This document shows, in pieces, positions 4,001 through 39,075 of a DNA stretch of 64,000 nucleotides (position 1 is the stretch's first letter; every line of letters begins with the position of its first letter). Origin of the DNA: Lingula anatina (Eukaryota > Animalia > Brachiopoda); the NCBI GenBank assembly GCA_051362555.1, contig CM120640.1, forward strand, positions 13,950,001 through 14,014,000. The letters run 5' to 3'. The position numbers and the translations under genes were made by a program. The notes under the pieces are model-generated. The model did not search any database. It was not told the DNA's origin and saw nothing but the letters and a program-made list of their open reading frames with translations.

Positions 4001-6752
4001 ACACATTAACGAAGTAAAATTTATCAAATTTAACTTACTAACAAGATCAGATATACATATGATAATAGCTATAATTTATTTTAAAAATGTTGTAGTTTTT
4101 TAAATCAATAATGATAATTCATTGAGGTCTCCCCATCCCCATCACGATGCTTATTGTGATTACAGAAACAGATTCGTAATGAGTATCTACAATCAGGTTA
4201 CAACTGCCCGAAGTTAAATTTTGGTTGTTAAAACCCTTATCAATTGTGCTTTTTTGTCTGGTCTTGAGGTACATGCAAAAAAAAAAAAAAAAATCAATAG
4301 AAATCAATGGCAGTTTAAGTGAAGTCCCTTGATAGAGCTGACACTGTTACCTTCACCCAGGCACTCAGAGAGCCTGAGGCATCAGATTGTTGTATGAATT
4401 AATGTGTGATGTCGATAGAACAATTACTGAACCATTCAGAGGCTGGCTTATTAGCTTTCTCGGGAATACAAACTGTGTAGATTAGAGGGAGGGGTGTTTA
4501 GTGAACGTGATAGAATGGCTGTCACAAGGGTACCCTACAAGATCAAGGGGGGGGGGAGGCGTGGTCATTATTTTTTAATAGATATTTTGAGATTGCATGC
4601 TGTATTTCATAAACATAATATTTAGAAGTGCTCCACGTTTCAGTGTTCCAGGGTTATGAAAGTTGGATATTGATGATCTGGATGTTTGGCCCATTTTTGT
4701 GGAATTTTGCTTTTACACAAATTGTTTTGTAGATGTTAGTTTGCGTCCCCTTGGTTATTAGGCCCTGCAGTAGCTACTGCTAGTCCACTTTATTGAAATT
4801 TGGTGGTGATTATGCAGTTAAGCATTGTATAATATTTATATGTCGAAATTGGCAATGAGGGTATTCAGTGCACTTCCTTGTTATTATCAACAAAATTATG
4901 TAATATATATAAAATTCACCCTAAGTTGAAGTAATAACTCATCTTGGTTACATAACTTTTTTTCAAATTATTCCAATTTTTGTGAATTTTTTGCTTTTAC
5001 AAAACTTTGCATTTTCAGAAGTGACAGACTTCTGGCCTGTTTTGCTGTTGATGTTCACTTTATATAGTTCTGGTCATTTGACAGCGTGTGCTGTCTTGTT
5101 CATTAAAAGGGCATATTTATAAACATTTACATGGAGTTGGCTGGAAACCTCAAAGAGTTTCCACACAAATCAAAATAACAAATTACAGTTTTAATTTGTT
5201 TCCAGGAGCTGTGGAAGCTTGTCTTCTGCATGGCCTCAAGAAACGTGCGCTAGGTCTCTTTAAGCTGAGCACCACTACTGCGCTGCTCCAGAAAGTTGCC
5301 AAGGGATTTGAACCAGCGGCCCATGTCATGAAGACTTACAGTGAAATAGAAAATCTGCATGAAGCATCCAAGTGAGATTCAATCTGGCACTTACATACAT
5401 TTGAACACACACACAATGCGCAAATTCATGCACACAAAGTAACATGCATACATGCGAACATTTGGTCAGATGTGCACAAGTAGGTGTAATACCTCAGGGA
5501 AGTGACCAGTTATATTATGTGTTCTCTGCATCTGCTATGATATTTATGAACCTAGGGAATACTGGAATCTGTGGATGGGTTTAATGAAATTATAGTAAGA
5601 AAGTGTGTGAAAATGTTTTTATAACACAGACCTCAAAACAAATGTATTTTTTAAATTTAGTCCAAGTTAAAGATGAATTAGAATGTATACAGAAGAACAT
5701 TGTTTTCATATGTATTTTGTATTTTCGTATTACTTGCCATTTACAGTTTAAAGCCTTTTTAGTATATGTTATTATAACAGTTATATTATCAAATTTATAT
5801 TTCAGAAAATCATCCATTTCCCTCACTTTAGATGGCAACAGAAATCAGAGTGTAAAGAAACCAAGTGGTATTTACAACCCCAAATACTTGTGGATCAGGA
5901 TTGCTCTTTTTGAGAAACAGCTGGCCAAGATTTTAGACTATCTTGTCAAAAACTGGAAGTAAGCAGCTTGGTTTTAAAGTTATGCTCATAAAAGATATTA
6001 AATGAATGTATTGATTTTGAAACGTGGCTAATGGGGTGTATCTTTTCTGAGTTCCGGGTGGATTGATGGTTATTTCCTCTCTTCCAAGATAACATATATA
6101 TTATTTGAAAACTGGCATGCAGTCTTTCATTTTTGGGGTACATGTTTATCTTGTGAAACTCCTTAGTAAAGATTGTCATGCAGACATTATGGAAAACTAT
6201 TCAGTTTTATAACTAAGTCTGCCACTTATTCTAAAAGCCCATTTGCTTAAATGCCCTCTTTTTGGAGTAAATACGAAGCATCTCCTGAATGATTTTTTTT
6301 GTTGTTGTTATTCTCTCTTTTCTTATGCAGAACATTCTCATGTTTTGTTTATTTGTATGTATGAACAATCGTTATTAATTAACATAAGTGAGCATTATTG
6401 GACTGCAAGATTACATACACAGGTACCCTCTAACATTGCAACTTTTTGTTAAATGCTGGACTTTTAAGGGGCTGTAACATTATAGAAACCCTGTTATTTC
6501 ATTCCAGAATATCTGCAAACATGATTTTCAGACAACTAGTTATTTAATGAAAATATACTAAATGTTATTTGGTTTTCTACCTTGAAACCTTTTATGAATA
6601 GATGAATGATTTATAGTGCCACCAGTGTTAAGTTGCTTAGGATTTGCCCTCCTTATTGCCGTACATTCCCCCTTCTCAGTCACATCTTATAACTTATAAT
6701 AGCCTCTCCTCACAAACTACAAGGACTAACAAAATGCACCTTTGGGCAATAT

Positions 6753-9800: not shown

Positions 9801-12800
9801 TGATAAGACAACAGTGTTTGTTTAAAAGTTTCTTTATGCTATGATAAACCCGGCAAATTGTATATTAATTTTTTTAGTGCTCAGTTCTTACAGTTTTACT
9901 TGAAAATTGTTAAGGAGCCCGTCTTGAGAAATCTAACCCAAAGCTGCATAATTGTTACAAACCAGCAGAATACTGATAAATTTCAATATACATACCTGAA
10001 AGCAATTGCAGCGGAGAGTCATTAATCTTGCAATTATTGCATCTACCTTGATACTTTTATAAGGCCTTTTATTTCACTTCAAAAGTCTGAGAATCGTGCC
10101 GAATTGATATTCATTCAATCTCACTGATTTGATATAAAAAGAAATTCTTTGTATGTTATAGTATGTTTTTGCCTGCAGAAAGAAGATGCACAGCCCTTGC
10201 CTGGCTACCTGTCTCTTCATCAGTCTGCAGATGGACTGACCGTCAAGTGGACACCCAATCAACTGATGGGTGGTGGACAGAACACTCAGGAAGACACGGA
10301 TAAAAGGTGACCTACAGATACACTGAAATGATTGATCATAAAGCATGCCCCTCTTGTCTTTAGTCATTTACCAATGAATCAGCGCAGAAAAAAATCCTTG
10401 ATATTTGAAAACTGATGTTGTTCATGTATTACCTTTTGCTTTTTTTTTCTTTTGAATGTTGTCAATTGGAAATGAATGTGGTACTTTGATTATTCTCCTT
10501 AATCATGCTATTGTTAGTTGTTAGTCTTTGTGATTGACTCATTCTGCACACTTTGACTGTGCACATTTGTTCTATTTTTTATTTGATTGAGCAGAATACA
10601 CATCATTTTTCCTAGATCTTTTGTGCACCAGTGATTTTTCTGTGATTGACAATATATTGTATAGTTCAAATGCAGTGGATGTCATTTAGGTCTGCATACA
10701 TGGCTCACAAAGATAATCCAAATAGTGTGTTATACTGATATAATTGTGGCAATTAAAGCCTTTTTTTAACCGTAAAACAGGGGTTGGTGGGGAACTTTAT
10801 ATTGAGTTGGTGGAATACTTTTGTCATGGTTTAGAATGTAAGAATGAGTGAATGCAATGCTTATAGTACATACATGCGCATATTGAAATTTTGTTTGACC
10901 TCAAATGTTATTTGGAATCACATAGCACAAACCATGTCTCAGTGGAAGTTCACTGATTGTTAGATGGCTGTTAAATGTAGGCGGTGTAAAGATTGGTAAT
11001 AATACATAATGTAAAATCTTATTAGAGAGAAATGATGTGTAAAATCCCATCAGAGAGAAGTGATGTGTATTTTGTCTAGAATTTTCTGTTTGCTTTATCA
11101 AATTACCACTGAGTGTGTTGTAATGAGCAGTTGTTCTTATGTTCTGTAAAGTTTTAAAACCTTTTTTGTAAAATATTAAAGCTTAAAAGCAAATTTTATC
11201 TGTTTTTAAAAGAGTGTTCCTTTCAAAAATCTAGAAATGACATGCCTCCTGCTCAGGCTAACACTTTCAAATTTCTCATAACTTGTTTTGCATTTGTGTC
11301 TTAATGATATTTATGTTTTCTTTTTTACTCACTCACATCTGTTTCCCCCCTTTAGTTCCTCTCATCATTCTGCTAGCAACCATATTCATAGACATAAATA
11401 TAAGCGTTTCCTCAAGAAAAGGGGTTCACAGGAGTGAGTATAATTTTTTCCATTCCTAATGTTTTTCTCTTTAGTTGCATTCACCCATACCAAGTTAAAC
11501 CAGTTCAGCACCAGGTAATCTTCTCCTGCTAATCAGCTGGGCAATGTGCAAGTTATTTAGACCACGTTCCCATACCAAGATTGATCTAGCAGGATCGACC
11601 CATCTCCGTTGGGGTTCCCGCTAAATAACATTCTGCTTGAGCGACTCTGATGTCTGGCAGTTGTTAAGGGGTAATTAACTAACATTTAGCAGCTGCAGTA
11701 GACGTGCCAGACATCTAAGCCACTTAAGTAAAATGCAATTTAGCGAGAATCCCCTCGGAGACAGACCAATCCTGTTAGTATGATAGGGGTATGGGAATGG
11801 TCCCTTAGTCATCTATTAGTTAATTGTGCCACCAGCGTATGCATAGGAGGTACTTTGATATTAGCCCCAAACCACTGCACCCTCCTTGTCTGTTGCATGG
11901 GAATCAAGGAACTGGCATTTAGTAGGACTGAGACTGACATTTCATTAAAAGTTAAAAGGAAACATAGACTAAAATGTGTTTCACTAACCAAGGGAAAAGC
12001 AGATATAGTTATAATATAGAAGTTAAAAGGGAACAACACAATCCCAGCACTGAAGTCACTTTTTCCTAAACTATGGGTTTAGGGGCTGTGTGCTTTTTTT
12101 TATAAACTTCATGCAATTATACGGTAGTGTTTCCCATATGCTGTCAGAGTTTGTGATCAATAAGTACATTTTCAGCACAGTTTCTACCTTTTTTTTTTTT
12201 TTTTTTTTGGGGGGGGGGGGTCAAAATTGAAAATTTATTAGATATCTCTTCTGATCCTATCTTATTATCCATTTGTCATGTCTAATGCCAGCTGGTGGTA
12301 CAAACGCAGGAGGTGGTAATTTTGTGAGTTTTAACAATTCATCCAGTAGACCTGTGTAAAATCAACTTACTACTGGGCTACTGGGATGGGGACTGACTAA
12401 TTACTGGGCAAGGTGAATTTGATCTGGTGCTGAAATGGTTTAGTGGGAAGGGTGTTCTTTTTTTAATCTTTTACCTCATGTTTTTTCCTTTATCAGCAGC
12501 TTTGATTATCAGTTGCGTCATTTCTCTATTACATATTTTTTGATTTAAGAAAAATGATGAAATTTATGAATGTAAATAATTTATGAGCGAAAAGTATCTG
12601 GCAAAAGCAAGGGATTCCTCCAGCTTAAGTTGAAAAATTTGTTATTGGAGATTTTTAACAGCATTTTTAACCTTAATGACCACCTTAATGACTAACTTTG
12701 GATGGTAGTGCCTTTGCTGTTTGGTAGTAACAATGTGGGAGCAGAAATGAATAATATATACCTAATATCTATAATTAGAATAATAGAGGCTGGGTACTGA

Positions 12801-15800
12801 TGCAAAAGTTATTAGAATAGGCAAACTCATAGCAAAAATGGGTTTTATATTTGTTGCAGTCTTTTACATCAGTAAGACTCATCCTTGAATATTGCAATGG
12901 ATTTGGAAACAGTAGAAGTAATTTGTCCTTATATGTATGTGCTTGTTTTATAACAAAAGAAATGTGATTTAGTCTCTCATATATTTTTCACATGCAATGA
13001 GCACTAGACCTTTACATTGCAAAACATTTCCTAGAAATGCCAGTAAGTTTCCCTTAATCATCTAGTCATACACCACCCAAAAGTATTGAGAAAATGACAC
13101 CTGATTTTGAGTTTTTGGTTTAATTTTTAATCACTCTTGCAGTGAGTATGGAAACTGATGAACTGTTGGCGTGATGGTATGTTTAGAATAGGGGTTATAG
13201 ATTGTTATGTTCTTGGTGGTTTTGGACTTGATAAAGGGAATTTCCAGGAAAAATGAGTTTTCCTATAAAATGTCAAAAGAACATTGCATGACCTTAAGAG
13301 CACGCAAGGGCCACTTGAACTTAATGCTGAATTTTATTTTCCTCGAAATTTAAATAGTTTCCCACAGAATACCATATCCAAAACCATTCAAAGAACGAAA
13401 GTCAAGGTTTTTGAATCACTTTTGTAACTAAGATTAAATACTGGTTTTGCATAGGGTATAACATTGTGATTAAGGAGGGAATCGCTGAAATATCCAGAAA
13501 AGTTAATTTTTCCAATACAAAGGTCTAGTGCGCATTGTGTGCTTTAAATGCCTCTGGCAACAGCTTTCTCTGTGTAATTTTCCAGTATCTACTGGGACTA
13601 TGCCTTGGCCATTCATGTGGATGAGATAGTCTACCTTCACTGCCATCAGCAGCGTAAGTACTTCTGATTGTTTACACTGCGAAAATGAAACAGATTCAGC
13701 TCATTTTGAATATTTTTTTTTTTTAGTACAGACACAGTGATACAGATTCAAAATGCAAAAAGATAGCAGACCTGGCAAGCTATATATGAGTGTTTAAATT
13801 GGAATACTTTCTGTAACAAAGTATGAAACATAAAAATATTTATATCCATAGCAAATGTGGAGTTCTTAAATTTATGCATAAAACTATTTTTAGCTGACAG
13901 TGGTGGCACCCTGGTCCTAGTGGGGCAAGATGGTGTCCAGCACCCCCCTATACATTTCCCCAAAGGCGGTCATCTGCTGGCCTTCCTGTCCTGCCTAGAG
14001 AATGGCCTGCTGCCCCATGGTCAGCTTGACCCTCCCCTATGGTCACAAAGAGGTAAAGGTAGGTGTGGTGTTGATGTCCTCCCTAGTACTGTAGAGCCAT
14101 AAGACATAATTCCATTCTGTTTGTGAATTCTTGGTTTTATATGTGCTTTTTCATCAGACTGATTTCTTGCCATGGAAAGCTGACAGTGCATTCAGAACAG
14201 TGGACTAACAGATCTGAAGATCACCCACTAAAAAGCTTGCAGCTTAATTCCCAATTAGACACTGAATAGATTCTCCATGGGGATTACTCAACAAGCATTG
14301 TAGTTGGTTGGCCATATTTGATCCATGGATCAGTTAGTCCAGTGTTCTGAATGCGGCTTAAGCTTATTCTTTTCTCATTTTGCTCAATGACATTGTAAGT
14401 GAGTGGAAATGTATGCAGTGTCCAGCTATGAAACTGGTTAGCTTAGGTAGTGTGTTCTATTTTGAACGGTCACAAGTAGACAGGAAATGTGCCAGTGCTG
14501 TGCTGTGAGACACCCATGCTAGCATAGATTTTTTTCTTTGTCAAATATTGAAGAAAATTTAAATGAACTGAAAAATGAGAAATAAATTATCATTTGCATC
14601 AATTCATTGATTTGGTATAAAAAAAGTTAAAAGACTAGGTGAGGTTATTTGCTGGCATGGTTTGGAATGACCATGTCTAGATGCACAGACTGCCATCTCC
14701 ATGGGATTTTCAAGGGAAAAAATCTGTGTTGTTGCATATTACTACACTCTTGGTGAGACTGGACCAAGCATAGAAATCTTAAGTAAACTTTCTGATTCTC
14801 TTTGTTTTTAATCAAAATTGGCCTTCCTATGTTTTATCCAGTGTCATCAAAATTTTTTGTACTTTGAGTTCCATATATTATGTCATACCAGACAACAAGC
14901 TGACCATAATATATAATTTTACTCTCATGGTCATAATGCAGTCTGTGGCATGTGCGGTTTGATTCATGTTGATGGAACTAGTGCTTCTGATATGGACAAC
15001 TCCTCATTAATAATAGCTGCATTTATATTTTGTTTAGTTTACACATTCTTCAATGTGCATTGGACAGATATTGGCACCATGACTGTAGTTTGACATTTTG
15101 TCATACTTAGAGAGAAATTCAGATATTTTCACTGACCAGGAACTATTATATGGAGTTTTTCACTAAGTTTATCTTGACTTACCTTTTGGCCAAAAACTCA
15201 GTCTAATGAGTGGAAGTACATGTATGAGGTCATTGTATGTCATGATGGTTTGATGCTGCAAACGGTTTCTTTTAAGATTATAAAATATTCAAGTGGATGG
15301 CATCTCATTTTAGCTGTTGCATGCATTTTTACTGTTGAATTATTTTAATTGTATGTATCCTGCTTTTTATGTACAGACACAGTGTGTCTGTACATATAGT
15401 CATCATCTGTGTCTATTGTTTTTGGGTGTTGTTATCATTTTCTTTATGCCAGGTCATCCATACATTTTGATTATTTATTTCTGCACATTTTGGTAAGACC
15501 TGCTTTAAGATATTGAAACATTAGTAGCATGCTGTTATTAAACATTCTCACAATTGAATAAAAAATTAAGCAATAGATTACCATTTTAATTAATTTTTTC
15601 TTGAATGTATAAATAAGTTACAAAAATACACTAACTTGACAACACTTTTTAAGCAATATCACTTTGGCATGTACTAAATAAATATGTTTTATCTATGTAT
15701 GAAAAATTGCACTTTGAAAGTGATTCTCACATCAAAGACTGCGTAGGCGAGTGATGCACATTAATTATCATCCGATTGAGCTGCATCAGTTTTGATGAGA

Positions 15801-18800
15801 TTCTGTACAAAGAAATCAATATCATGATGTCTGCCTACAGCAGCATGCCTGGCATATTTCATATAACATGGTGAACACGAAGGCAAACCCAATGAGGAGG
15901 AGAAGCACCAGAGTGGCCACTGTCTGGATGTTTGATGCTATGAGGACTACAATGTATGCAGCTATGGCAAATGTGCTGCCATGCCCTGAGTGGGGGTCAC
16001 TTTGGTAGAAAGCAGGGATTGACATAGCTAGAGTATTAAATAGAATTACAAGAATAATAATCCACCATTCTTGAGTGCCGTAGAGAAATTTCTGCATGGG
16101 TGCTACCTGTTGAATGTCACGTATCCTGCTTTCGTTTGCCTCTGTGTTCAGAATGATGTGTTCCAGGGTGTCAGCAAAAGCTTCACCGTATTTTTCTCGG
16201 TATACCTCTACTGCATCTCCAAAATCTCTAGCTGCGTACTTACTGATGAGGAGTAGGCACTCCAGGATCCAGTAGTAGTTCACCAGGATGAAGTTTACCA
16301 GGCTTAGGAAGGGAATGAGAACAGTGCACAAAATCATGAAAGCTGATCTGAATGATAACAAATAATCCTCACTGATGTAATTGTCAGCATGAATCTGAAA
16401 ACCCAGCAGCAGCAACATAACAGCGAACAAAAAAGAATTTCCCACAATACAAATATACGTTCTTGTTAGAATTCCACCACAGAAGCCTGTTCTCTCCGAT
16501 ACCTTAAAACCATGCACATTTAAAATTAGTTCCATATCTTTCACAAGTCTTCGCACCATATACATTCTGCTTACATAGACTATGGATAAGTCCACAAGAT
16601 CTATGAACAATAGAATCATACCAGTTATTTGCCAGGCATTACCAAACTGGTAATCTTTTCCAACAGCTAGTCCAAAAACGGTGAAAATTATGATTGGATA
16701 GAGGAGAAATTCGTAGCAAAGATTGGTGATATACTGAATGCGTTTATTTCTGTGTTTATCCTCCTCTGATGTTTCTGTCATTCCAGTATTTTTATTTTTG
16801 TAATACCTTAACTTAAGGTAGAAATAGATGACAAGGAGAACAATGTTCTCTAGGATCCCAATGATAAGTGCAGGGATTTTAAAATGTAAAAAGTTTGGAT
16901 CAACCGCAATATCCGCTATGGTAAATACAAGGTTGGCTAAGAATACGCAGTGCATGAATACTTCCAATGAGGTGGCTATGCATGGGTTGAGGGGTTTCTC
17001 TGTCTGGGATGTAATTAATTTATGTCCAAGGTTAGCCTGGTCCTGATTTGCTCCGTATGATAACCGTTGGGTGTCAGAGACAAAACAGTGGTTTTTCAGT
17101 CTGTCACTGGCACTTATGTTGCCTGCACCGACATCTTGTCTGACTGCAGCCTGGTCTTGGTGGATGATTCTGTCACTTGTAGAAATATTGTCCATTTCTG
17201 GAATTGAAACGGCAACTTGGTCATTTTTTATTCTAGGTGTAGGCATTTCCACACTTGGGACAACTTGATTAGATTTTACGTGAGTGGTTCTTGGCTGTGT
17301 TTTTCTGTTCACAAACGTCTTTGTTGAACCAGCCTGTAAGTTAATGGTCCTTCCTGATGCATCTGTGTATGTAATTTGTTGCCCTTGATGGTAAGTAACT
17401 GCCGGACTGTCACCTTGACCTTCAGCCCCTGCGTGGTTGACTACTATTCTAACTGTCTTGTGCACAACTTTCGGCATTATGAAGATTTCTGTCTTTTATC
17501 CTGAAATGAAAGCATGTCTTGAATACTTATGAAAGACAAAGTGGACTATGTACACAAAACCACAAACTGGATGGACATAGAGTGACCTTAACCACAAATT
17601 TAATCATCAATAATAATAATAGATTTTTATTCATAATGAAATATTTGGAAAAGTGTGCTTAGTTTGAGGTTCATTATTTTTTATGCCTGAGGCCACATGG
17701 GGATAATAACCTGTCAAGGGGAACTTTTCCACCCAGGGGATAATTCAGACATCATTGACTACATTGAATGACAACACACTGAGTGAAAGCTTTAATCCTA
17801 TTTCCTCAGATATTTTTATGATAGATAGATCTGTTGAATTTAGCATTGGCAAGTCACTGTTGTATATTCCTTTTTCTTGGGAATGTGAATTTTTCTTGGT
17901 CTTTTATTTAGACATATTTATTGGACATCGGAAATATTTTTAAATTGTAGAATCCAAGAATTTAAATAATCTGTGTATTAACATTTTGAATTTTTTGTAA
18001 TGAGTTTAAAAATTGATTATTAATTATTGAAAAAGTATAAAATATATTGCATATAGAAAACTTACATGAGATTGTATTTTCACCTTTTTGAATGAGCTAG
18101 ATGACGGTTTCTTAAAAAAGTTCATTAGCCTGTTAGTTATACATGGATTGTTAAATTAATCAATTCACAGACAGTTTTTATCTTAACATTTTCATCAATA
18201 ATTTTGATCAATGACAAATGAATCAATGATTACAACTCGGCGTTAGAACATCAGTGCATGACCAGTTTGTCCTGAGGAAGGCTCTTGAGTTGAGCCGAAA
18301 ATAAGGTGGCACGAAAATATTTAGATAAAAACTGTCTGTGAAATGATTAATTTAACAATCCATAGATGACAGTTATTTACACAGGATAAATCACCAAGAG
18401 ATACCCCATACAGGAGGTTGATAGCATGTAAACATGCTGAGTTGGCAGTAGCACTGTTTTCACAGGAAGCTTTTTTGGTGTTTGAGAAGTGATCATGATT
18501 GGTTTCTAGTGTAATTTGAGACATGTCTCAAAATTTACAATGGTTGTGTGGAAAGGTAGAAAAGAAAATGGTGTGTTTGTTTTTTTCCCCTTTTATTCTA
18601 GAGGTATGATCCCCAGAAGACAGATCGACAGGTGTAATTTAACACTTTTGATAAAATTTGTAGTACAAATTTTAAGAAGAATTATAGCTGGGTAACATAG
18701 CCCTTTTCACTAGCTACACAATGCCATGAGAATTGTTTGTATAGCTGCTTTGGGGACAGGGAAAGTCCTGAAAGTGAAAGTTAAATTTTTATTCCCAAAA

Positions 18801-21800
18801 CATTTCTGTTACATAATCTGAGGAAATGGGGAACACAATTTTTAGTAAAAATGTATCAATAGTGTGCAGAATCATATTTTTTGGTTTTATAAATACTTAT
18901 GAAGGTATTACACCCTCTTTTAAGTTGAAATATTTTTACACTAGCATTCCTCATGTCACTGTATATTGGACACATATTGGTTTTACTGCACTCACCTATT
19001 TAGTGACTTTCTTTGAATTTGTCAAGCTTCTCTTTTCCTCTCCATCCATTTTAACGTCTTGAAATTCTTCTATTACTTCATAATATATATGTTCTGCTTC
19101 CAAAATGAGTTTAACGGCGAATTTGACAGCTAAACTTTCTGTTTTATTCAATATGGTGGACTCACTATTTGCTTGTATTTATACAGCAACATGTCACATG
19201 GTACACAGGATAAAAGCCAGGTATCCGTGTATCCAATAGAATGCACAGCCCAAACAATGAACCTCAGGTCTACGTCAGTAGGTTTTGTGTTGACCAAAGT
19301 AATGTAACCAGTATACCGTGAGAAGAGCTTAATTACTGGCCTTTTAAGTTTGCCATATTTATGTTAAGATGTTATTTCTGGGATTAGAAAGTTTTTTGGC
19401 AATATTTCTTAGCATATATGACTGCTGTTGACATCTAATAATTGTTGAATTTAAAATGTTTTCAGGATGCCCAATGTTTTAATATTGAAAATAAAGCAGA
19501 AATATAGTACATGACCTTGAAAAAAAAGCTCAAACTAAGATTTAAATTTTTAGTGATTTTTACCTGGATTATTTGTTGTGGAGTTTTAACACTGGGAGAA
19601 AATCAATGATTTAATGATTCAATTCTTCATGAAAATAGGAAAGAAATTACACATTGCTGGTTGAAATAATTGCTATAGAATTTCATAACCTAATGAGATA
19701 TGTAATATACAGAGAGAAAATTGAAGTGATTATCCAAAGGTTCAGAAAAAAGCACAGATATTAATGACATACATAGACAGGAGAGAGGCAGCTTATTGCC
19801 ACTAGCCTCCAACTTGATTTTTATATTGATTTTCTTTATGAGTTAAAAATTCATGCTTAGAGAATGCTGTGTTATGATTGGAACTCGGCAAAAGCATTGG
19901 GGCTTTTTCTAGTGTAAGTAAGCTGTATTGATCCTGTTTTACTTATTACAACATTGATGCTATTACTGCTAAACCTAAGGAAATTTGGTTGTTGCATTAA
20001 ATCAGAATTAATGCTAAATGATGGAACTTATACAGCCAAGATGGTTTTTCTATTGCTTGATGTATAATTGAGAAGTGATAAAAACCCAATACATAAGCTA
20101 TTGTCTTTCATGCACATTACCCTGATTTGATGAAATAGTGATGAGAAGCTCTTTATTCATACACATGCAAAAAATTTTAATCATGACTGTATATGCCAAT
20201 TAGTGCAAAATGGTTATAACATCTGCAATGTTTGGTAACACAGTACAGATAAATCATTTGTCAATTGATGGAAATATGTTCTTACATCTGACCAAAAAGC
20301 ACACAATGCACTTTTTTCTGCTTAGAAAATGCTTTTAAAATCTGCTGAAAATATCACATTGCTATTCGTTGAGATTAATGTCATCTTTTTTGTACATTCT
20401 GTATATTCCCATGCTAATCCCAGGGGTTTTCTTGTAACTTTCTACTTATGACCTATTGTTCACGTAAGTTGGTAATTCAAGGTTTGTAAGTTGTAACCCT
20501 TTTAAAATATTGTCTCAACCCCTCCTTTTTTTTTTTTTTTTTTTTTTGCAAACTTTAAAGAAAATTTGCTTATCCAAAATGCTTAGCAAATACACTAGAT
20601 TGGTGAGTTCGTATCAATATGTTATAGAACACATGATTCCATTATATTACAAGTTAAGTCTTTGTAAAGTCCCTGACCTTTTGTTATGACATAGACATGG
20701 ATCACAACTTTTTAACTGCTTCAATCTCAGTTTTATTATACTCCATGTGTGTTATCAGTACATCCAAGGACAATATTGCTGAACAAATCAGTCACTGGAA
20801 AAATACACAAAATTAAACTTTGCCTAATTACCTAGGACTATTGTAAATCATGGTGTATGATAACACTGACAACATTTATAACATCATCTGTTTGTCATGT
20901 TAAGTTTGTAGCAAAGAAATACATTGGTAAAACATCAATAATTTAGATAGCCAGTAATCCCATGCTTTACAAATTAAAATAAATATAAACATGCTGATAC
21001 CCATCACATAAAACATTGAACCATGATAAGAGATTAGTATACACTATTTATAGAATTTCTTTATATACTATATTCTGTGTGAAAGTCTTATCTTCACACT
21101 TTTATTCTGAGTCAACGGTTTTGTAACTTTAACATTAAAAAATAAATAAAAGAAAAAAAACAGAACTGAGTGGGAATCAAACCCACTCCCCTGTGATTGG
21201 CAGCCAAGGATATTACCACTGGGCCAGCAAGTCCTGCCATCTGATGGAGTGCTTTTGACAATATATGATACCTGTCACACATGCCTTTACAGAAATTGCC
21301 GAAGGCTAGAAAATGCCTTCAAAATATACTTTTAACAGTTATAATCAAATTTAAACTATGGCCACTACCTTCCCACTGCCCTAAGGTATTGCTAACACCT
21401 GACAGTTGTCAACAGATTATTGTAGTTTGAGAGACAAAAAAGGTAAAAAGGAGACTTCAGCTGATCTGCTATTACTATATAGATGCACTTTTTACTAGAT
21501 AAAAAAACGGATTTGTTCTATTTTATAAATTTGTATAACAATAAAAAGAATAGGAGGATAAAAAACACTAATCCTGCATACTTCACAATTCCATTTTGTT
21601 CAGAAGTCATCTCTTCCCATCTCTCTTTCTTTTTTTCAATCTCTTCATCCACTTCAGGTGGATCACTTGGTTTGCTGTACTTATGTTTGCCAGATGAATC
21701 ATCAATAGCATCACGAGGAACTGATTTAGTCTGACGTTTAGAGTTCCATTTTTGACTCACCTTGTCAACTGAAGAAGTCTTACTTGAAAATAAGGAGAAA

Positions 21801-24800
21801 CCCCTGTTGCTTTCAAACTCACTTAGCGTGAGTTGGCTGGTATGAGATCTGTTGCTACTGATGGTAGTTTCTTTTGTATCGTTAGAAGAGAGTGAATTTG
21901 TGCCGGTGCTTTTTTGTGGACTCGTGATTAGACTAAATGTCTTTTTTCTAAGCCCATGTTTATGTGATTTTTGATTAGGCATTTCTTGTTCCAGATGTAC
22001 TTCATTGTTTTGATTCATTGAACACATTGTGCACAGGCCTTCACTGTGATTGTGATTTGTTTCTGTCTCTCTGATTTCACATTCTATTTTAAAGTCACCA
22101 TTCTCTTCTGACTGTTCTTCAATTTCTTCTAAAAGCAAAGTTTCAAAATTACCTTTAATGTCATTTGAAGCACCGCATGTATGTTTGCCATCTTTCTCAA
22201 TGGATGTTACTACATCTACTTCCTCACATTCCACTCTTTCTGTTTCCTGGAATTCTGCTATCAGTGGCTCAGAGAGTGGTTTTTGAATTTTTTTGTGTTC
22301 TGCTATTTTCTTTTCTGTCCCAGTGCCTGCCTCTATACTGCTGTGATCACATTCAGGGCTCACAGATGAATGAGCAGGGTTTGCATTTGACCTATGTTTG
22401 AAAGCATGCTCTTCCTGATATGGAACTAGGAGTTGTCCATTGTCTTGGGCGTGGTCAGTATTGATGTCATGGTCACTAGTCCATCTGACAGTGGCATCAT
22501 GTCTCTCAGGTCCATCACCATCATCGGAAGTTCCAAAAAGCCATTCTCCTTGCACATTTTTCTCCTTTGTAACTGACTCATTTTTAAAACACTGTTTTGA
22601 TGCAGGGGTTTCTTCGCTGAATCTTTCAGCAAAAGTAAATTGTTGTCCACCTTTTTTGGGACCATCAGTGTCAGTGTTATTATTTTTCTCGGTGGCATTA
22701 GGAATGACATGTATATCTCCAGCCTCCATGAGAGACCCTGTGAAAAAAACCATGCAGTACATCTCAGTTGCATTCCTTCTAGTAGATGATGTTCGTGGCA
22801 TGGTTAAAGTAAGGAAGCAGCAAGAGCAAGTGGAATTTTAAAATGGAACTAGAGCTTTAGAAGTTAGAAAATCAGACAAAGAATGTTTTAACCTGTCTCC
22901 TATACATCTTGAAAAAGCTATTTTCCATTATGTAGTCTGATGACCATAATGTGTGGCAAGAAAATTTTCCTGACTGAATATTACAACTAAATGTCATCCA
23001 ATTGAACTGCACAGCTGCCAGGATTTTTTAAAAAAAGAAGTAAATGAGATGGGCAACTGCATACTCACTAATGTTGCAGGGAATGAGGCGAGCACTGTCC
23101 TCGATCGATCCTGTTGACACATAGGCACTTCAGTTTGAAAGTGTCATGCAAGATATGCACTGCTTGATTATAGGAATTCTTGTACCTTTTTTCATGCCTT
23201 ATTTCTCTCGGCAAATGATATATATGGCATAAGATAAGTAAATCACTTCCTGAATTCCATTCAAAACCTTGCCTTTTTTGCCATGGTCAGTTCCCTACAA
23301 AGAAAAAAAAATTTTGAAAAGCAATTACTCTGTGTTAATCTGACACTTTCTCTGATATAAAAATAAGCTTACGGGATTAACTCTTCCAGTATGAAGTCAT
23401 TCATGCCTTTCTTTGGGAGATTGATAAGGTAACATATTTCAAATCCAGATAATAAATTATATTATAAATCTCTAAAGATATGATTAACTTTGATGGTAAT
23501 GGATTCAAGTTCATCCTTTGAACTGATAGGAGAACATTACTAATGAAACGGGAATTAATCTTTTTGATAAAATTTCCTTAAACTACATTTCCTGAAAAAA
23601 ATATATGCATCTAACATTTACCTGCTTTCCACTTTTGTCCCTTTTCAATTTTTCTACATTATTCAACCTGGGGTGCTTGACTCAATACTATAATTGTGTC
23701 CTCTGTTATGAAGAATATTTAAAGTGCTAATAATATTTCACCTATATGCTGGAGGGTGTGAATAATTCCTCTGGGAGTAATTCAGGACATTGCCCTCTCT
23801 TTGATACACATCCTAATGACCAAATTACCAACTTGTGTGTGAAATGGAATCATGTTAGAGTCCATAAAAACTGAATGTTTGATTAAATTACAGTGTTGCT
23901 TGTTAATAAATTTTCTTGCATTTGGTTTCTAATCAATAATCCCCTGAGTGCAAGTTTAATATTGGGGATGCAATTTCAAAGTTCAGGTAAACTCACTTCC
24001 AAGCCTATCTCTCGGGAAATAACTTCAGAGATCAAGACAGCTGATTAGATAGGATGCAACAATGAAGAGTTACACCTGAAGGTGGAAACTTGGAAAATCC
24101 CTACATATTTTGTATCAAAAGTATATTAAAACAGTAAAGTAATTATCTTATATCCCAATAACAATGCTCGGAAATCATCAACAATCATATGAAAATCATC
24201 TTACACCTCAACTTGGTAAATATTTGTCAGCAGAATTATTTCTTTTGCATTTGTAATGTTAAGTAAAACTTACCACCTGAATCTTCAACCATTATAAAAG
24301 TGTTATAAAATCGCTTATTATTCAAGCCACTGATCGAATCTTGGCTTTGTTTTGTTTTCACAATCATTTCATTTTTATGCAAAGCATACTTGTTCTAAAG
24401 TGAGCATAAAATGATTGCTGCTGGAATAGATTTTTAATTTAGAGTTGTCAAACTGTGAAATTGATAATTCCTCTGTACCGAATTGTAAAAATATTAGGAC
24501 TTAGAAATGGATGGCATTATAAATGGTCGCCAGAAGACAATGACAGTTGGACTAATGGAAATAGGAAGACAGTTAAATAATGTTCCTACCTTGTCAGAAT
24601 GAAGGGTTCTAGCACACCAATATCTTCAGCAGGATTTCAATAGGGATCACTTGAGTAAATGAATTTAGGTCATGAGGCCCATTACTCTGCATTTCAGTGT
24701 CAGTTGGTTGTTATACCCATATAAATGTATATCTTTATACGTATACCAGTTGGGTCTTTCCTCTACCTTAGATCTTATTCATATCTTATTCATTTAATCT

Positions 24801-27800
24801 AATTTCCATAGTCACTGTTTATTTTCTTTCCTTTTGTACAAAAACAGGGTTCCACTTAAGAGTTATCTTTACTTTTAGGTAAATACACATAACACATGTG
24901 CTAATTGTTGACATAAGTAAATATTTTGTATGGAGGGCACTTTGCTAGATTTCACCCATACTGTTCATTTGGACCTGAATGTGATTGTTGAGATGAATAA
25001 AGATTATTTTCACTGCAGTGGACTGATGTCAATAGTGTACTGTGACATACAGTTGTGTCTTGGTTGTGGCTCTTCATGATATGCTTATTTAAACCTATCT
25101 TGGACTCTTTGGACCAGGAACCCAGTGAACCACTAGAGTGAGAAGAAAAGGAATGGATCTCATGTTGACTGCAAAAAAAAAAAATAAATAAAAAAAAAAA
25201 AATAATAATAAAATAAATAAAAAAGATTAATAATAATAATAATAATTAGATAAAATTATTATTATCATCATTATTATTCTTGTTATTATTTATTTCTTTA
25301 TTTTTAAGAATAATAATGATGATAATAATAATTGTTTAATTAAAAAAAACTATATGCTAGCGAGAATGTCTAATGATTTAATTTAAATGTGTGACATTAT
25401 TAACATATTATTGTTTTCAATGATGGACAAGATAACAAATGACACCACTGACTGCAGACATATCAGTATGCTTGTGCTCAGATCATTGTAAAACCCTGAA
25501 AAAAAGTAAAGTGGTGGGAGAAGTGCTTTTAAATTTTAGTCTGATATTTATAAGGTGTAAGGTTAATTTCTGAAAGAGTTATTTTGATATAATTTTAATA
25601 GTTGGAGATGGTATGTGTCAGCTTCTGGCCCAATTCCAATCAACAGTTTTGATGAAAGTGGGCTGCAAATATTTTTGAGGTGTTCATTATTTTTCAGCAA
25701 TCAATAAGCTTTCTGAAAGCTTTTTTTCCACATTATCATAGTTATTGTAAAAATCAATTTTTGGAGAAAGAAAAGGTGTTAAATACCTTTGTTTGGCACT
25801 AGTACCAAATACAAATTATTTAACTTATATTTTTGAAATAATTTATTGTCATTTAAATATGAGATAGATGATGAATTCTTTACATTTGATAACTTCTGTC
25901 AGAGCAGTATTATGTGTTTTGATAAATCTTTAAAACTTTATATATCATTTTCTGCTGGTAAAAATTCGGTATTACTAATCAGATGGAATTCAAAGTAAGT
26001 TTTGACATGCAAACAGAGACTAAAGTCTTTATTCAAAAAAAAAAAAAAAAAAACACTGAAAACCCAAATCTAACTTTTCTATATAGTGCGCAGTCAGTGC
26101 ATCTTGTATCTGTGTTGCGCAAGTCACTTTCTCCAAAGAAATTTTGTGGGGGTTACGGAAGAGGGTATCGAAAACAGTCCTTGTGACCAGATTGAAATGC
26201 CCCCTGTGTAGGTAACAAACACAACAATACCATGCTTTTCATGCCTCAAGAAATTTGTATGAGGAGTAGTGTATTACTTCTTTTGTATGGCACATGAAAG
26301 CAGAACTGTAATATAAATATGTGCCACTCTTTGCAGTATTTGGCTAGCACGACATTAATGGTACTATACTTGAGAATAAGGACCTCATAGCATCGATGGA
26401 GGAAATTCATGTCAAAATGTCTCTCTGAAAGGCAAATATTTAAGTCACCTGTTTTTACCTTAATGAACTTGAAAGTTAAAACCAAATTACACGTGACTTC
26501 TGAGAAGCCAGGATATTAGGAAGAGGAAGATATTTGTATATATATTTCGTAGTCCATGAGATTTGGTTACTTGTCCTTTTTGAACACAGAGTTAAAGGAG
26601 ATTTTAATAGAACATAAGCAGTTCTTATGAAAATGACAACAAGGATGACAAGCAGAAGCTTAATGAACACAGCACCAGATCATATGCCATAGTACTAGAA
26701 CACTTCAGAGAATGTGACTTTGAACCCAGACAATTTTTTTTCTCTGCCATTTTGGAAACTTAGTGAAGTACCGACATGGCGGGCTCTAATAGGCATAGTA
26801 GAGTGATCTCCAAATCTTTCCGGGTAAGTGGGTATTGATCTATATCCTTCACTTTTCAAACATACAATTCTACTCTAAGATTGAACTGAAATTAAAAAAA
26901 AAATACGACAAAAATTATGGAAAGGCATACTGATCAAGCATTTTATGATTTTGTCTCAGTAAAAGATGGTTGATCTAGTGATAATTTAATGAATAATCAA
27001 CTGATTTGATGAATGGTGATGTGCTTCTGCATTAATCTGTAACATTATTGGAAGTTCAGTTTCTACTCAAAGAATCTTTAGACTATTTTGAAAAATTTGT
27101 TTTGTACAAATTTCAGATGTTTGGAAATACAAATGGTGGGGATTCAGATGATGATGATGATAGCAATGGGGAAAATAATGATGGACTTGAAGAAGAAGAA
27201 GAGGAAGAATTGAGATCCCTGAGAAGTCCATCAATTCCGTCCATAGCTCCAGATTTGGATGATATCCTGGAGGACGTTTCTCCTACGCCTACTCCCACAC
27301 CTCCCCCAGACGAGCCACCAGACGAACATTTAGCAAGAATAATTCCACAATTCAATCATCCAAAGAGGGAAGAAAATCGCCAAAAAATTAGGAACATGGT
27401 GAAAAGGGTGAATGTGGTGTCAAAATGGAGGGACACAAGGACAGTGACAGGAAAAGTTACCACAACGTTTATATGTGCACCTACACAGAGGATTACCTAC
27501 AGGGAGAATCGAATTCAGGCATCTGCTGCCTTGGAGACTGTCAATTTGGTAACAAAGCCTCCGCTCAGTAAAATTAAGAGCATTTTCTTCAGGGTTCTGG
27601 CAGAATTGATTTTTCTGGCTAACTTGACTTTTGCCCTGTATGATATCATTACTGGCCCTGAATTTCTGTATTTCAAGGTCACAGCATTTCTTTTTGGAGT
27701 TTTTGAAAACCTGCTCATGTTTACAATGTGGTTTATTCTGTCCTGTCCTTGCATGAAAGGAGAGGAAGAGAAAACCAAGAAAGTCGAGAAGTATCGTCAG

Positions 27801-30800
27801 TATATAGAAAATGTTGTTCATGAACTTTTGATCTATCCTGCCATTATTATCAATGTAATTGCAATAGCCACTGAGCAGTCGTATACATTTGAAGAGGTTG
27901 CTGCTATCATAACTATGGCATTACTCTTCATAGATGGCATTGATTTGATTTTCAACGTTTACACTGTGAGAATGTTCATGGCTTGGAAAATCACCAGGAA
28001 TATTGAAGATGAAATCTTGAAAGTAGCAGTGGACGAGAGTAATACATTAGAAAATGCCACCCTCGGAGGGAGCAAATTTGGTCGTGTGCTACAACGATTT
28101 TACTTCACTATGTTAGGAAACACAATGCTTATGGGATTGATGCTGTGCACTCTGGGAGTGCAGGTTTTATATGACAATCAAGACTCAGGGGACTATACCA
28201 TGTCATTGTATGCCATTCTCCAGATCGTTTTAGTTCTCTTTTTTCCATTTTACAGCATTTTCCTCTTCATAGCAGTCAATTATTTTTGGATTTTTGAGTT
28301 GTTCATCAGTATTAATCGTGCTGTCATGCGCAAAAAGGAAATTCAGGAAAATTTAGTTATAGATTATGGGGAGATGGTTGGGGAAGTATTGAATTTTGCC
28401 ATTGATAAATCAGATTATACGGAAGTTCGGCATGAAGATATACAGACTATCACATCCACCCAAAAGTTTTTCTATGCTTTATGGGAGTGGTGGATTGCCA
28501 TATTGTTGTTAATGTGGCCATTAATGTATGCTGCATTTGGAGAGTCACTGAATGTAATCGATGTCCCAAGTGCACCTGAAATGAAGGTAGCATTCTATGT
28601 GACAGCAGCTGTGGTTAATTTACAGGTGTGCTTTTTATCAATTTGTATGCTGGTGATAGCAGTGCTGTTTCTGGCTGGTGGTTTTCTGGTTGTTATTTAT
28701 TATTATTGTGTAGGTAAAAAGAAAAGTAAAGTAGACCACCATGGCAAAGCAGATGACATTGTGAAAGTAGAAAATGGCAATATTGATAAGCTACGATAGT
28801 TCAAGTTTTGATGGTCATATAAAAAGCAATATTTTATGAGAAGTCATGTTCACAAGTGCTGAGCTGAAAAAAAAAATGAAAGAATTGTGAACTGGATTCT
28901 TATTGTGCATTGTGTAGGCTATTATTGATAGCCAAAAGAATGTTTGTGTGTAATCTATATCAAGGACTAATATTGTTGCTGGTTTTTGATCATAAAACCT
29001 TAATACTCAAAATTATTTTTGTTGTTATTTGTCACATACATCTCACACTGTATGCATGTACCCAGCATGTGTGTATAGCATATAGATATATGTACATATG
29101 AATGTGCGCTGTGAAGGCCAGAACTACTATTCGTGCTATAATAAGTTGAATCCTGCTGGGATTACTTGTAATCCTATAATGCAGGTTATGTTAAATAGGT
29201 ATGATTCATTATTCCTTATATTTTCAATGTGTTTGAAAATTAATTTTGGTCTATTATTGAAAATTAAAGTAAATTATTTCTCTAGAAACTAAGCATGTTT
29301 TTACATGTAACTACCCTAGCCTGCATAGCATTTTGACTCATGAATGCATGACTCACATGGCTATGAATAAGGATGAAAGCACTACTTTTTTTCATTTTTA
29401 CAAAAGAGACAATAAAAAATCTATTTCACTGATCCACTTATTATTGTTTTTGATCATTTTAACTGTGTAGACACTTTTTCTACTGATTCAGATGAAACAT
29501 TCTGGCATTTCCGTACGGCCTACTTTGTAGGTCAAGTGTTAAATTGGCTTGATCAAATTATTCTTTCAGTAATATAATTTTACTTTTTTTGACCTGCTTT
29601 AAACATTCTGTTTACAGTAGAAGTGGGGGCTTAACTGTCAAAAATAAGTTTAATTATCATAAGGTTGTCTGTACATATGTCGTCATTAGGTGACTTATTT
29701 TCAAACCACGAGGGAAAAGAAAGAATTACTTACAGGTCATACTGTACTGTACGAGTTAAGTGAGGTCTGTGTATAGTTTGCTTAAAAATAAAGATTAGAA
29801 ATAAAGTTTGCTTAAAAATAAAAATTCATCTTTCATAAAATATACAACTATCAAGAAAAAGAAATGCTATTTAAGGCATTTACATAAAGGTTCTCCAAAA
29901 AGCAATTTCAAGTTATGAGAAAAAAGACCCATCCACTGACATTCTTTGGATTTCATTTCAAAAGTATTTCTTTTAATTCTAATATTTATTCTTATATATA
30001 CTTATACATTTTTTGTCTTTTGCAGGCAAAGTATTTCCAAAATTGCGAAAGAGGAACAATCGTCTGCGGGGCAGCAGCTCCAGTGCCTCAGGCTCCAGTT
30101 CAAGCCAAGATGGAGACCTGCATTCAGACTTGTTTGTAGATGAGGAGACCACAGACTATGTTTTTAGGATTATCACCACATTCAGACCAGAGAACATGCG
30201 TAAGTCCTGAGTTTCATAATAGGTCTGAATAGAAGGTATTTGAATTATATTCTCCCCTATAAGGACAAATAGAAATTATACTTTTACTTAATATTGTGCC
30301 TGTTTTGTGTATATTATTATTGGACTTGTTACTACAAAGTTAAATGTCAGTGATTTGGTAGATGCATGTTCCTTATTTGTAATTTCAGATAGTAAATCAT
30401 CTCTGTTGTTACACACTACGTACATTTCAGTTTAAAGAATTTTGAGACTAATGCTTTTACAAGGTAATTTTCTTCTATGAAATGGTTGCTTTCAAATTTG
30501 TTCATCACATTTGATTTAAGCCCCAGAAATCCTTGACACAAAGACAGAGTTCAACTTCAAGCTGTTGGACCTGTTTCCATGGCAGAATAAAGAGACCAAC
30601 GTGAGCAAGCCGTCTACTCCAGTCACCCCAGAGACTTCCGTGCATTCGTACGCTAGGGCGCAGCAGCACATGAACAACACATGTATCTTTCAGAATCAGT
30701 CAAACCACAGGTATTGATGCTTTTATGGACAGTTCATCTATTCAGTATTTGCCAACTGTAAGTAAGATGTGGGGATTTTAAAGTGATAAAATTGGATGAA

Positions 30801-33800
30801 GTTATTCTGGATAAACCTATAGAGAAAAAGAAATGCAGAGTAAAAACTCAAATGTCATTTCAGATTTTAAAAAAACTTAAAGATGCATGTGAAGTGCTTG
30901 TAAATGCCCTATTACATAGATAAATTGTTTAAACGAGTTTCTTACACAATTCAAATAAAATCCAAATGCCAGAAAACTAGTACCTGCATGTCACAACCTA
31001 GCTACTGTACACATTTTGCTCCATTCAAATACTTGCTTTGTAAAAAAAATTGAAAAAGAATTGAAAATAAACTATAAAAGAATTGAAAAAAAAAATTATA
31101 AAATAAACTGTCACTATTGTTCCATACATTTGTATACATTCCAGAGCCACCATAAAACAGCTGTGTGATACTATGAGGAAGCAGATTCTGTCACGGGCAT
31201 TCTATGGATGTAAGAGAATATTGTACCTATGGAATCATTACTTGTGTCTAACAGTTTTGTAGAGGTTCATGTACAGTCATACCTACATTGTCTATAAAAT
31301 AAATAGATCATAAAAAAGTAGTAGAACTTTTTTTATGCAGGAATGTTTACAGATTTGAAACCTTGTCATTAAAGAGCACCTATCCACCTAATTAAGCATC
31401 ATTCATTCTCTGACTTGGGCGTTTACCAACTATGAAATATAACTAAAAAAAGACAAAGTATTTTTATTTATTTATTTATTTATTTATGTAATTTATTTAT
31501 GTAATTTTTTGCCATCTCTCTCAGGGCTTGCTCACCGTAGACACCTGAAGACAGTGCGTACTCACCTGTCTGGTCTGGTGAACAGTACCATGTACCCTGT
31601 AGATGACCCATGTGACGCGGCTTGTGGCCTCTCTGCTGATACCTGGGCAGAACTGTATAAGAACCAAGTGGTGGAAGACTCCTTGGAAGTGAATAGACTG
31701 ACTTATTATGGTGGTGTGGCACATGAAATTAGGAAGGAGGTGAAAATGCATGTACTTTGTCTTTTGCTTTTAAGCTGTGAAAATCATCATTGTTGTTATT
31801 AGTTACTGAAGTATATTGTATTGTTGTACAAATTATTGATACTTTTTATTCCCAATGACATTGTTATAAAGTTAGGCACATTGGTAGTTTACCAGAATTA
31901 TGGTGTGTCTTCTCAATTCATCTAATGTTGTAGTAGCCGGCACTCATTCTGTTCTCTATGTGGGAAGTGTAAAAAGCCTTAATGGTAGAACAATTCCTGT
32001 GATTTTTTAACTAAGCACAACATATAGCAAAACAATATTCTGAAGTACAGCTAATTAAAAGTTTGTATTGCAGGTATGGCCCTACTTACTTGAACATTAC
32101 ACATTTGGCAGCACTCCAGAGGAGAGACAAGCACTGGACCAATCCATACAAACTGGCTACGAACAAACCATGTCTGAATGGCTTGCTGTGGAGGCAATTG
32201 TTAAGCAACGAGAAAAGGAATCTGCTTTAGTCAATCTATCGAAATACTCGTCAGGAAGCACCGATACCATTCCTTTAGTCAGGAAGGATTCCAGTTTGAG
32301 TAATGATGTTTTCTTCGATGGCAGCCTTGAGGTGGAAGAATTTCATCCCCACGAGCCACCATTGACAGAGGAGAGCTCAACCGGAGCCTCAACCCCAATG
32401 AGTGATCAGGCTGCGTTAAAATTGGTCCAGTCAGAAGTGGCTCAACTGTCAGCCAAAATCCAAGAAGAATTCACAGCAACTACATCCACGACTGCCACAG
32501 AGAACAAAGAGAAGGTGGATGACATGAGAGCGACGATACAACGACGTAATCTGAAAAGATCTGATGAACTGGACAGCACCAGCCCAGATGAGGGGATAGG
32601 GGACTCCCTCCTTCAGAGACAGAGTACCTGTGAGTCCAAGGGGACTCTGTATGACAGTTTTGACAATGACAGTGCTTGTGATCGAGGTGACGAAGACCAG
32701 GGGCCAAGTAAGGACATTGTGGTCACATACCCAGCAGCAGAGGATGTGTTCTCCAAGGGCGAGAGCACCCCTAAAGGGGAGGTCACACCTGAAGACCAAG
32801 AAGTCGCAGCGCTCAATGAAAATGCCAAACGTTCAGGCATCAGTGGTTTGTATTTTCTTCTAATTTATATAGAGTATTATTTAGTTTTTCACTTTCAATC
32901 ATCAATTGAAATATTAGGTTCTTCTTTCATGATAGAGTTCACATTTTTCCATACATTCAAAGCAAGAGCTTAAGCTATCTGTAATTAAGTTTTCTTCCAG
33001 TTTTTTCATGATTGAGTGCTTTCATTATCATCTTTGAGACAAAATATTTTAGAAATTGCCTGTCATCATTATGCAAATTTACTTTCAGAGAAAACCAGAC
33101 ATCTTTCTACCTCAAAGGAGAGTTTGGCATCTCCAGCCTCCCCAGCTTGTCATGGTGCTGCTTACACTGTAGGCCTATGTTTATAACTCCTGGAATTTTT
33201 ATTGTGATAACTTTAAAAAAATAAAATAAATGCAGATTTTTTGCCAAAAGAGAAAGCTTCTGAGCAATTAAGTGACAATTGACTTCATAAAATTTGATTG
33301 GTTGTGGTTTAAGGATTTTGTCCATTTCATTTTTTTACCATTTTTTACACTATTTCCATTAAATTAATCAGGTTTGAACTATGTGGCTATAATATTGCTG
33401 CTTGTGAAGCCACGATTTCAACATAGCTCCAACTTTTCTCCTTTTCTTGAGTTGAAATATTTCCGCTTTGTAAAACTAAAAATTTTTTATTCATATTAAC
33501 ATATTTAATTACAGCCAGAATTACTGGACAGTGTGGCTCTCAACCTCCACCGTATTGACAAGGATGTTCAGAGATGTGATAGGAACTACCACTTCTTCAC
33601 TACAGAGAACCTGGAAAAGCTGAGGAATATAATGTGCACGTGGGTTATGATTATTGCAGTTGCTTTGGGTTAAATTCTGTAACAATGAGAGTTAGAATAG
33701 TCAAGGTGATATGTGGTTAGCACCCACTGATAAAACTTCATATTTTCATCTTAGAATAGCTACAGATGTAAGCAAAAAGTAGAGACATTCTAAAAAGATT

Positions 33801-37150: not shown

Positions 37151-39075
37151 TTAGTACCACCAGCGTGTACGCTGGCGGTACTCATGGTTTTAGTCCCGAC
37201 CCGTCTCGTCCGGCTCCGCCGGCTCCGCCGGCTCTGCCGGCTCCGTTGGCTCCGCCGGCTCCGCCGGCTCCGTAAGCTCCGCCGGCTCCGCGTACTGGCG
37301 CCGGATACAAGTCACCGTTACCGCTTCTCCTCCTAGACCGCAAGGACCCCTGTCCCCATCTCTTGGATTTAGGTCACATATAACCTCAACTTGAACCCCC
37401 AGGTTTTTTTGTCTCAGTCGGTACATTGACCTGGGCGTGACGCTCCTTGAAATGCACCCTTGTCAAAATTTTTGAAAATTCAATGCCAATTATCTACCCT
37501 ACGGAAGGAATTATGGGAAAATTTTCTACAGACGGCTTTCCAAAAGTCATATGTGTAGATTTCAAATATGCCCTTGGATTTGACCTTTGACCTTTATTTC
37601 AAGGTCAAACGGGCCAAAATTTTCAAAAAAATGAAATTTTTTATGAAAAAAAATATTATTTGCACTGTTATTCAGACACTACACAGACTTAACCAATAAT
37701 TATATTGGAAAGTGTTACCCTTTGGGTCATCTTTCATCTCTGTGAATTTGGGGTCAATCGGTGCATTTTCACAGGAGTAGCGGCCATAAAATACCGAAAA
37801 TGAAAACTGTCTCTAATTCGGGAACCGTTAATGCTAGCGACCCGTTCTTTTTTGCATTTTGTAGAGCATGTAAAGCCCAACACTGAGAGTGGTCTCCGTT
37901 TTTTTTGTATTTCATACGGTTTTCGTGTTATGCTGTATTAAAAAGTACTTTGTGGTGGCACATTTTTGTAACTCAGAATTGTAACATTTAGTCCCTTATA
38001 TCTCCAAAACTGGCAGAGATAGGTCAATAGTTATTATTTAAGTTGAATAGGAAGTCATTTACTTGCAATCTAGATGTGAGCTTGAAATTGACCTTTGACC
38101 TACTTTTCACCATGAATTGAACTTTGCCAATTTTTGTTCCCTTTAATCTCCAAAACTGGCAGAGATAGGTCCATAGTCACTATTAAACTTGAATAGGAAG
38201 TCACATACTGGCAATTAATCAGTGACCTTAAAATTGACCTTTGACCTACTTTTCACCATGAATTGAACTTTGCCAATTTTTGTTCCCTTTAATCTCCAAA
38301 ACTGGCAGAGATAGGTCCATAGTTACTATTGAACTTAAATAGGAAGTCATGAACTGGCAATTTACTGTGACCTTTAAATTGACCTTTGACCTTCCTTTTA
38401 CTATGAACTGAACTTAGCAAATTTTCGTTCACCTTTATCTTCAAAACTGACAGATAGGTCCATAGTTACTATTGAACTTGAAAAGGAAGTAATACACTAG
38501 CAATCTGTGACCTTGAAATTGACCTTTGACCTACTTTTTATGATGAACTGCTTTTTGCATGTTTTCTGGCCTTTAAATCTGCAAAATTGGCAAAGAAATG
38601 TCCATGGTTGCTATTGAACTTGAATAGAAATTCATATACTATGATATTGAAATTGACCTTTGACCTACTTTTTCACCATGAACTGAGCTTTGCATATTTT
38701 CTTGCCTCTCATATCTTTAAATCTAGCAGAGATGTGCCCATTGTTTCCCCTGGGTTTTCTCTTTTGTCAGCATATATGCACCATTGACAACACATTTCAA
38801 GGAAAACCAATAGGCCTTTTGTCTAGAGAATACAGTAGTGAGCAAGGGTAGGAAAATGCAAGTCAATTTGAAAATCTGCTTGATTGTATCATTTTTAGTT
38901 ATATTTTTTGCATATTTTGAGAACTCTTGTTGATTGCATCTTATAGAGCTTGTCAAACACCAGACTGGTGATGGTGTCCCTTTTAGGAGGGGGGGGGGGG
39001 TCCATACGAATGCGCTTACTCCAGCTGGTGGTACAATATCTGGAGGCGGTATCGCCTCTCTGATCCTCTAGTTTT
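37151..39075 (+). mobile_element. Non-autonomous Helentron/HINE (DINE-1/pearl-like) element with internal tandem array, family H2
   Basis: TT plus a 5' hairpin agtaccaccagcg-tgta-cgctggcggtact (37153-37182); a 9-bp (CCGGCTCCG)n microsatellite (~37209-37290); a central tandem array; 3' subTIR gctggtggtac (39024-39034); 3' stem-loop gaggcg-gtat-cgcctc; ctagtttt end. End fragments of the same family occur at ~12288, ~50295, ~53825 and, inverted, at ~62760-62813. Confidence 0.8.
38001..38745 (+). repeat. Tandem array of ~146-bp units (about 5 copies) inside element H2
   Basis: Units start tctccaaaactggcagagataggtc at about 38001, 38147, 38293, 38438, 38578 and 38714; each full unit carries aaattgacctttgacct. 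Confidence 0.9.

Follow-up and report, generated by a model that had tools for sequence, protein, structure and literature searches.

Genes A and C, which lie in a 64,000-nt stretch of the Lingula anatina genome (the window), encode related multi-pass membrane proteins with charged residues inside their membrane segments, and the question is what such proteins do. An earlier note on this DNA proposed an undescribed channel, transporter or receptor family without known relative. This proposal found no support: the predicted structure is in part matched by the Xkr phospholipid scramblases. The family thus appears less exotic than first proposed, and its possible function is now concrete and testable.

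The gene pair and its genomic setting

Gene A occupies the minus strand with one coding exon (15822-17477, 551 aa). Gene C lies on the plus strand and, according to the NCBI model (99% identical), has a first coding exon of 16 codons (26776-26823, annotated start 26776), a GT..AG intron (26824-27116) and a second exon (27117-28799) that contains the membrane core (about 27561-28715); the whole protein has 576 aa. Both ORFs match Lingula anatina records at 99%: C corresponds to LOC106150944 and A to LOC106150892 / LOC112041363, annotated as 'uncharacterized'. The latter two are near-identical NCBI models on different scaffolds, both of 553 aa, and are likely alleles or an assembly duplicate. 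Compared with the window sequence, reads over gene A have 6 additional nt at 17165, which keep the frame. The open frame of C was first given as 27048-28799 (plus strand) with a TTG start; since the NCBI model places an exon at 26776-26823 and an intron up to 27116, this TTG is likely intronic and the start had to be revised.

RNA reads of four of nine listed runs (X1, X4, X7 and X8) were mapped to positions 13300-25200. Fourteen junction reads from X7 and X8 define a 1495-nt GT..AG intron in the 5′ UTR of gene A (17501-18995, minus strand), with the upstream exon ending at 18996. In X7 and X8, most bins over A have a read depth of 2-5 per read direction; in X1 and X4 the depth is close to 0. 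Gene A is spliced and transcribed. Among the read differences that fall inside A, a partial sample drawn from the best 30 of 130 across the mapped stretch, 14 of 23 are silent compared to 34% expected for transitions (p=0.007). Of the purifying selection claimed earlier for both copies, that on gene A is supported by these data.

BLASTP aligns A and C with 119 of 355 residues identical (34%, E 2e-51). MAFFT places the cores in 411 columns, 125 of them identical, colinear to the C-terminus and with the motifs listed in the earlier note in register, which confirms both ORFs and their colinearity. The local alignment score of 506 compares to maxima of 74 in 300 full shuffles and 163 in 300 local 10-residue shuffles. 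The N-terminal tails had been described as unrelated; however, similarity begins already ∼30 residues ahead of TM1. A tblastn search found no third copy within the 64-kb window. Judged by these alignments, A and C are diverged paralogues of each other. Both genes are intact.

Both genes are nested in a single 15,967-nt intron of a host gene on the plus strand (14059-30025): 31 X1 reads leave the upstream exon at its end (14058) and continue at 30032, where the sequence follows a canonical acceptor. The host gene (5082-33000, plus strand) comprises a RUN exon (5082-5372, Pfam), a PH_RBD exon before the intron (13894-14058, Pfam and reads) and an exon after it (30026-30199, reads and sequence). 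We take it to be SGSM, a RUN / PH-RBD / TBC-type gene whose TBC exons presumably lie at 31443-32970. Three ORFs on both strands are nested in the 16-kb intron. Between A and C lies ORF B (21518-22801, minus strand, 427 aa), an acidic, low-complexity protein with one C-terminal hydrophobic helix of the tail-anchored type; it has no Pfam match above cut-off, its exact sequence is absent from the protein collection searched, and it attracted almost no reads in the four runs.

Other features of the window were recorded as well. Exons at 41383-44547 (minus strand) encode a coiled, zipper-like part and extended regions rich in Ser/Thr/Pro/Gln, without a good Pfam match; in our view they resemble an MNT-type Max-network transcription factor. 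At 15364-15414 and 14183-14332, two short elements combine very high read depth with many loose ends; they are dispersed repeats or small inverted-repeat elements whose transcripts come from elsewhere. A tandem repeat of ∼146-nt units with 76-82% identity spans 37992-38745, and palindromic elements occur at 1265-1470, 3367-3624, 11560-11802 and 54687-54870.

Family range and conserved residues

With a profile of the A and C cores, 156 proteins were retrieved from 1.84 billion representatives (E<=0.001), and 57 of these reach E<=1e-10 (the two Lingula records are included in both counts). For 6 of 20 clusters looked up an organism was given: Capitella, Owenia, Lamellibrachia, Lingula, Branchiostoma and Oscarella. 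Besides Lingula, the named members therefore come from annelids, amphioxus and a sponge, and this range is a lower bound because the other 14 clusters gave no organism. The Lingula cluster is a third paralogue, so that Lingula has at least three. A metagenome scan yielded one 6.5 kb locus with an intronless relative in an uninterrupted reading frame; word-index homologue searches yielded no more than two family members besides the Lingula records and are uninformative on range. On this sequence evidence A and C belong to a real, old and unnamed family of animal membrane proteins, as the earlier note had held. In the literature covered, which largely excludes subscription journals, we found no account of the A/C family, nor of any remote family with an Xkr fold.

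Known families were not recognized by sequence. Pfam gave no match for A or C up to E 1 and none above cut-off for 72 family members; XK-related was absent among the 25 families listed of 129 for 85 members. PDB sequence searches returned nothing significant and no Xkr among 16 matches. In these searches, sequence similarity to Xkr was thus undetectable. The DRY and NPxxY motifs of rhodopsin-type GPCRs, the GxGD motif of the GxGD proteases and the matching folds were not found.

Of 121 aligned rows, the 101 with a core coverage of 70% or more went into a FastTree tree, which served for clade definition only. It separates three clades: one of 33 rows that includes A, C, annelids and amphioxus, a second of 17 rows, all unnamed, and a third of 51 rows that includes Oscarella; the pairing of Lingula with amphioxus was flagged as a long-branch join. 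Many conserved residues are clade-specific, so that many of the long motifs common to A and C are pairwise identities and not family signatures: FLANLxFxxxDI, PxFLxFK and LLFIDxxDL each occur in 2 of the 101 full-length rows, whereas Ex[LI]xYP is present in 72. In A, this TM3 motif (E256-x-L-x-Y260-P261) maps to 16695-16712 on the minus strand. E256 is the best-conserved membrane acid (of 110 rows that have a residue here, 105 have Glu), the proline is conserved (103/113), and both are 5 residues apart in 85 of 86 rows. Conserved family-wide, in A numbering, are G151, P162, E256, Y260, P261, R304 (16566-16568, minus strand; 94/115 rows), G359, D/E365, N366, P389 (119/119), N/T400, W403, E406, K463 and N516. 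D189, K200, D293 and R339 are found mostly in clade I, clade III has E175, R251, D266 and K361 instead, and R304 is lost in clade II. Regarding TM1 acids, clade I carries N182 and D189, clade III E175, and clade II neither acid. D/E means are 0.78-2.21 in TM1-4 versus 0.02-0.22 in TM5-8. The conservation of membrane acids claimed before was thus borne out, as was the absence of ESxPQ (0/101 rows). DxxD[GSA], which we take as a crude proxy for a caspase site, is not enriched in the N-tails (14 versus 17.2 in shuffled sequences); the C-tails hold 4 versus 1.9, in 3 of 119 rows.

Topology and predicted fold

A and C each contain nine hydrophobic segments (19-mers), in line with the ∼9 TM helices originally counted. 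However, loop composition over 101 relatives (K/R, Cys and sequon statistics) implies eight net membrane crossings, which would put both termini into the cytosol. An AF2 model of A predicts TM1-TM8 in an Xkr-like arrangement within the membrane core (residues 165-546; 15840-16985, minus strand), followed by a C-terminal hydrophobic helix that ends in a Cys cluster. TM2 (197-230) and TM3 (238-273) are joined by a 7-residue loop, and a short conserved helix (460-469) precedes TM7 and includes K463 (91/112 rows). An AF2 model from a two-row alignment (pLDDT 43) was set aside, and the structure matches of the Atlas's own model were ignored as this model is poor (0.38).

In VIA-align, Xkr structures rank 1, 2 and 4 and superpose colinearly over both halves. 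We consider it quite probable, on the basis of this model, that the family adopts an Xkr-like fold of two four-helix halves; an HHalign comparison of the N-half with the C-half gave no repeat signal. According to the earlier note, a full-length structure match to a characterized family would remove the novelty: Xkr, which it had dismissed for lacking ESxPQ, provides such a match in part. The note also suggested that EN, ExLxYP, DxxD and WIxE converge on one pocket. The first three are placed within helices 2-4, so that a contact is conceivable, but WIxE, judged by helix positions, belongs to the other half, at the cytosolic end of helix 6, and is therefore likely apart.

Possible functions

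Because the predicted shape is closest to Xkr, our leading, still tentative reading is that the family of A and C combines an Xkr fold with phospholipid scrambling. A charged core would be formed by buried acids and an arginine of helices 1-4 (D189, E210, E256, D293 and R304 of A, with N182); in Xkr8 and Xkr4 such a core is needed to move lipid head groups or to thin the bilayer, and it can bind Ca2+. The proline of helix 3 may serve as a hinge. Scrambling would be caspase-independent and possibly Ca2+-assisted; in place of a conserved caspase site, activation might depend on the variable N-tail in the cytosol, on a partner protein or on Ca2+. A broader version, which we hold slightly more cautiously, sees here a second large Xkr-fold family that has existed since before the sponge/bilaterian split and lies beyond a sequence link to XK. 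In this version, its members in brachiopods, annelids, amphioxus and sponges would scramble lipids free of caspase control, by a charged core with a different wiring.

Less likely, the family shares fold and ancestry with Xkr while performing another job: its acids would form the Ca2+ or cation site of a sensor, a small-solute or ion carrier or an adaptor and not a lipid path. The rewired charges, with acids in TM2 and TM4 and no canonical motifs, would suit such a role, as would the large number of divergent paralogues, with three clades and no fewer than three members in Lingula, which recalls receptor or sensor families. The acids of Xkr4 themselves bind Ca2+ (PMC10495444), and the role of the buried charges of XKR9 is left open by its authors. 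Conversely, Xkr1, 4, 8, 9 and CED-8 are all reported as scramblases in PMC12334663, and the family's outer loops average 12-21 residues and include no extracellular domain according to family loop statistics.

It is rather unlikely that the proteins represent an unrelated new fold of a channel, transporter or receptor and that the Xkr match reflects a common helical arrangement. The match was obtained with a predicted model at moderate Z and a high rmsd (4.9-6.0 Å), ∼130 residues among the first 392 of the model remain unaligned, as does its last helix, and support from Pfam, PDB sequences and Foldseek is absent (no match at E<=0.001 against PDB or viral models). Yet three separately solved Xkr proteins head the list, and the topology and the bias of acids towards the N-half agree with Xkr independently of the superposition. 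The top row of the viral fold search, a 405-aa Barrevirus 'transmembrane protein', was not significant (probability 0.54, TM 0.26, E 0.25).

A distant branch of TMEM117 (PF15113), a multi-pass animal membrane protein of similar size, is very improbable: among named clusters it scores best by language-model features with either paralogue (Atlas 0.76 and 0.75), but these scores stay below 0.9, a level that shuffled proteins often exceed, with 144-147 of 256 features shared, PF15113 matches neither A and C nor the 72 members at E 0.01, and TMEM117 is absent from the families listed for 85 members (25 of 129); if TMEM117 itself had an Xkr-like fold, both readings would merge.

The scramblase reading would give over 150 animal proteins that lack annotation a first hypothesis on their function. 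At ∼10% identity to Xkr the family of A and C would keep the architecture and the N-half acids with the acids moved to other helices, and as charge pairs are swapped between clades it offers a natural experiment on the features that scrambling needs. If it does not scramble, it would present the Xkr fold doing another job.

Comparison with Xkr scramblases

The closest systems are human XKR8 (8XEJ), rat XKR9 (7P16) and human XKR4 (9BOJ), which we compared using PMC8298096, PMC8500837, PMC12334663, PMC10495444, PMC9436381, PMC8976877 and PMC12785667. As described there, the eight TM helices of Xkr proteins are arranged as two repeats, and there are re-entrant helices (IH1 between TM2 and TM3, IH2/IH3 before TM7). 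TM3 is polar and has a kink at PQL, and acidic residues cluster in the N-terminal domain. XKR8 requires D26, D30, R134, E137, E141 and R183 for scrambling, and the fold is reported to be without structural relatives (PMC8500837). How the buried charges move lipids is disputed, with a stairway, a Ca2+ bridge and membrane thinning under discussion (PMC8500837, PMC12334663, PMC10495444).

The predicted architecture, the N-half acids and the Glu and Pro of TM3 are common to both families. Residue correspondences follow from spacing: the Arg after the TM3 Pro comes 44 residues on in the A/C family and 39 in XKR8, which makes R304, located where TM4 reaches the cytosol, the likely counterpart of R183 (PMC8500837). 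ExLxYP stands in place of ESxPQ/PQL, in which the Glu precedes the Pro by three residues. Unlike Xkr, the family has acids also in TM2 and TM4; it lacks the paired TM1 D-x3-D (D26/D30 in XKR8), the re-entrant helix between TM2 and TM3 (IH1, none in the model), the beta-hairpin and enriched caspase sites. Additional elements are an N-terminal helix that is conserved, a helical insert on the cytosolic side that follows TM6, and the long hydrophobic C-terminal helix with its Cys cluster. With the architecture in common and the motifs missing, the A/C family falls outside the Pfam XK family yet likely works like it. A caspase site in the cytosolic tail is a feature of XKR4/8/9 and CED-8 that XK (XKR1) lacks: XK is caspase-independent, partners with VPS13A and scrambles all the same, as we propose for A and C.
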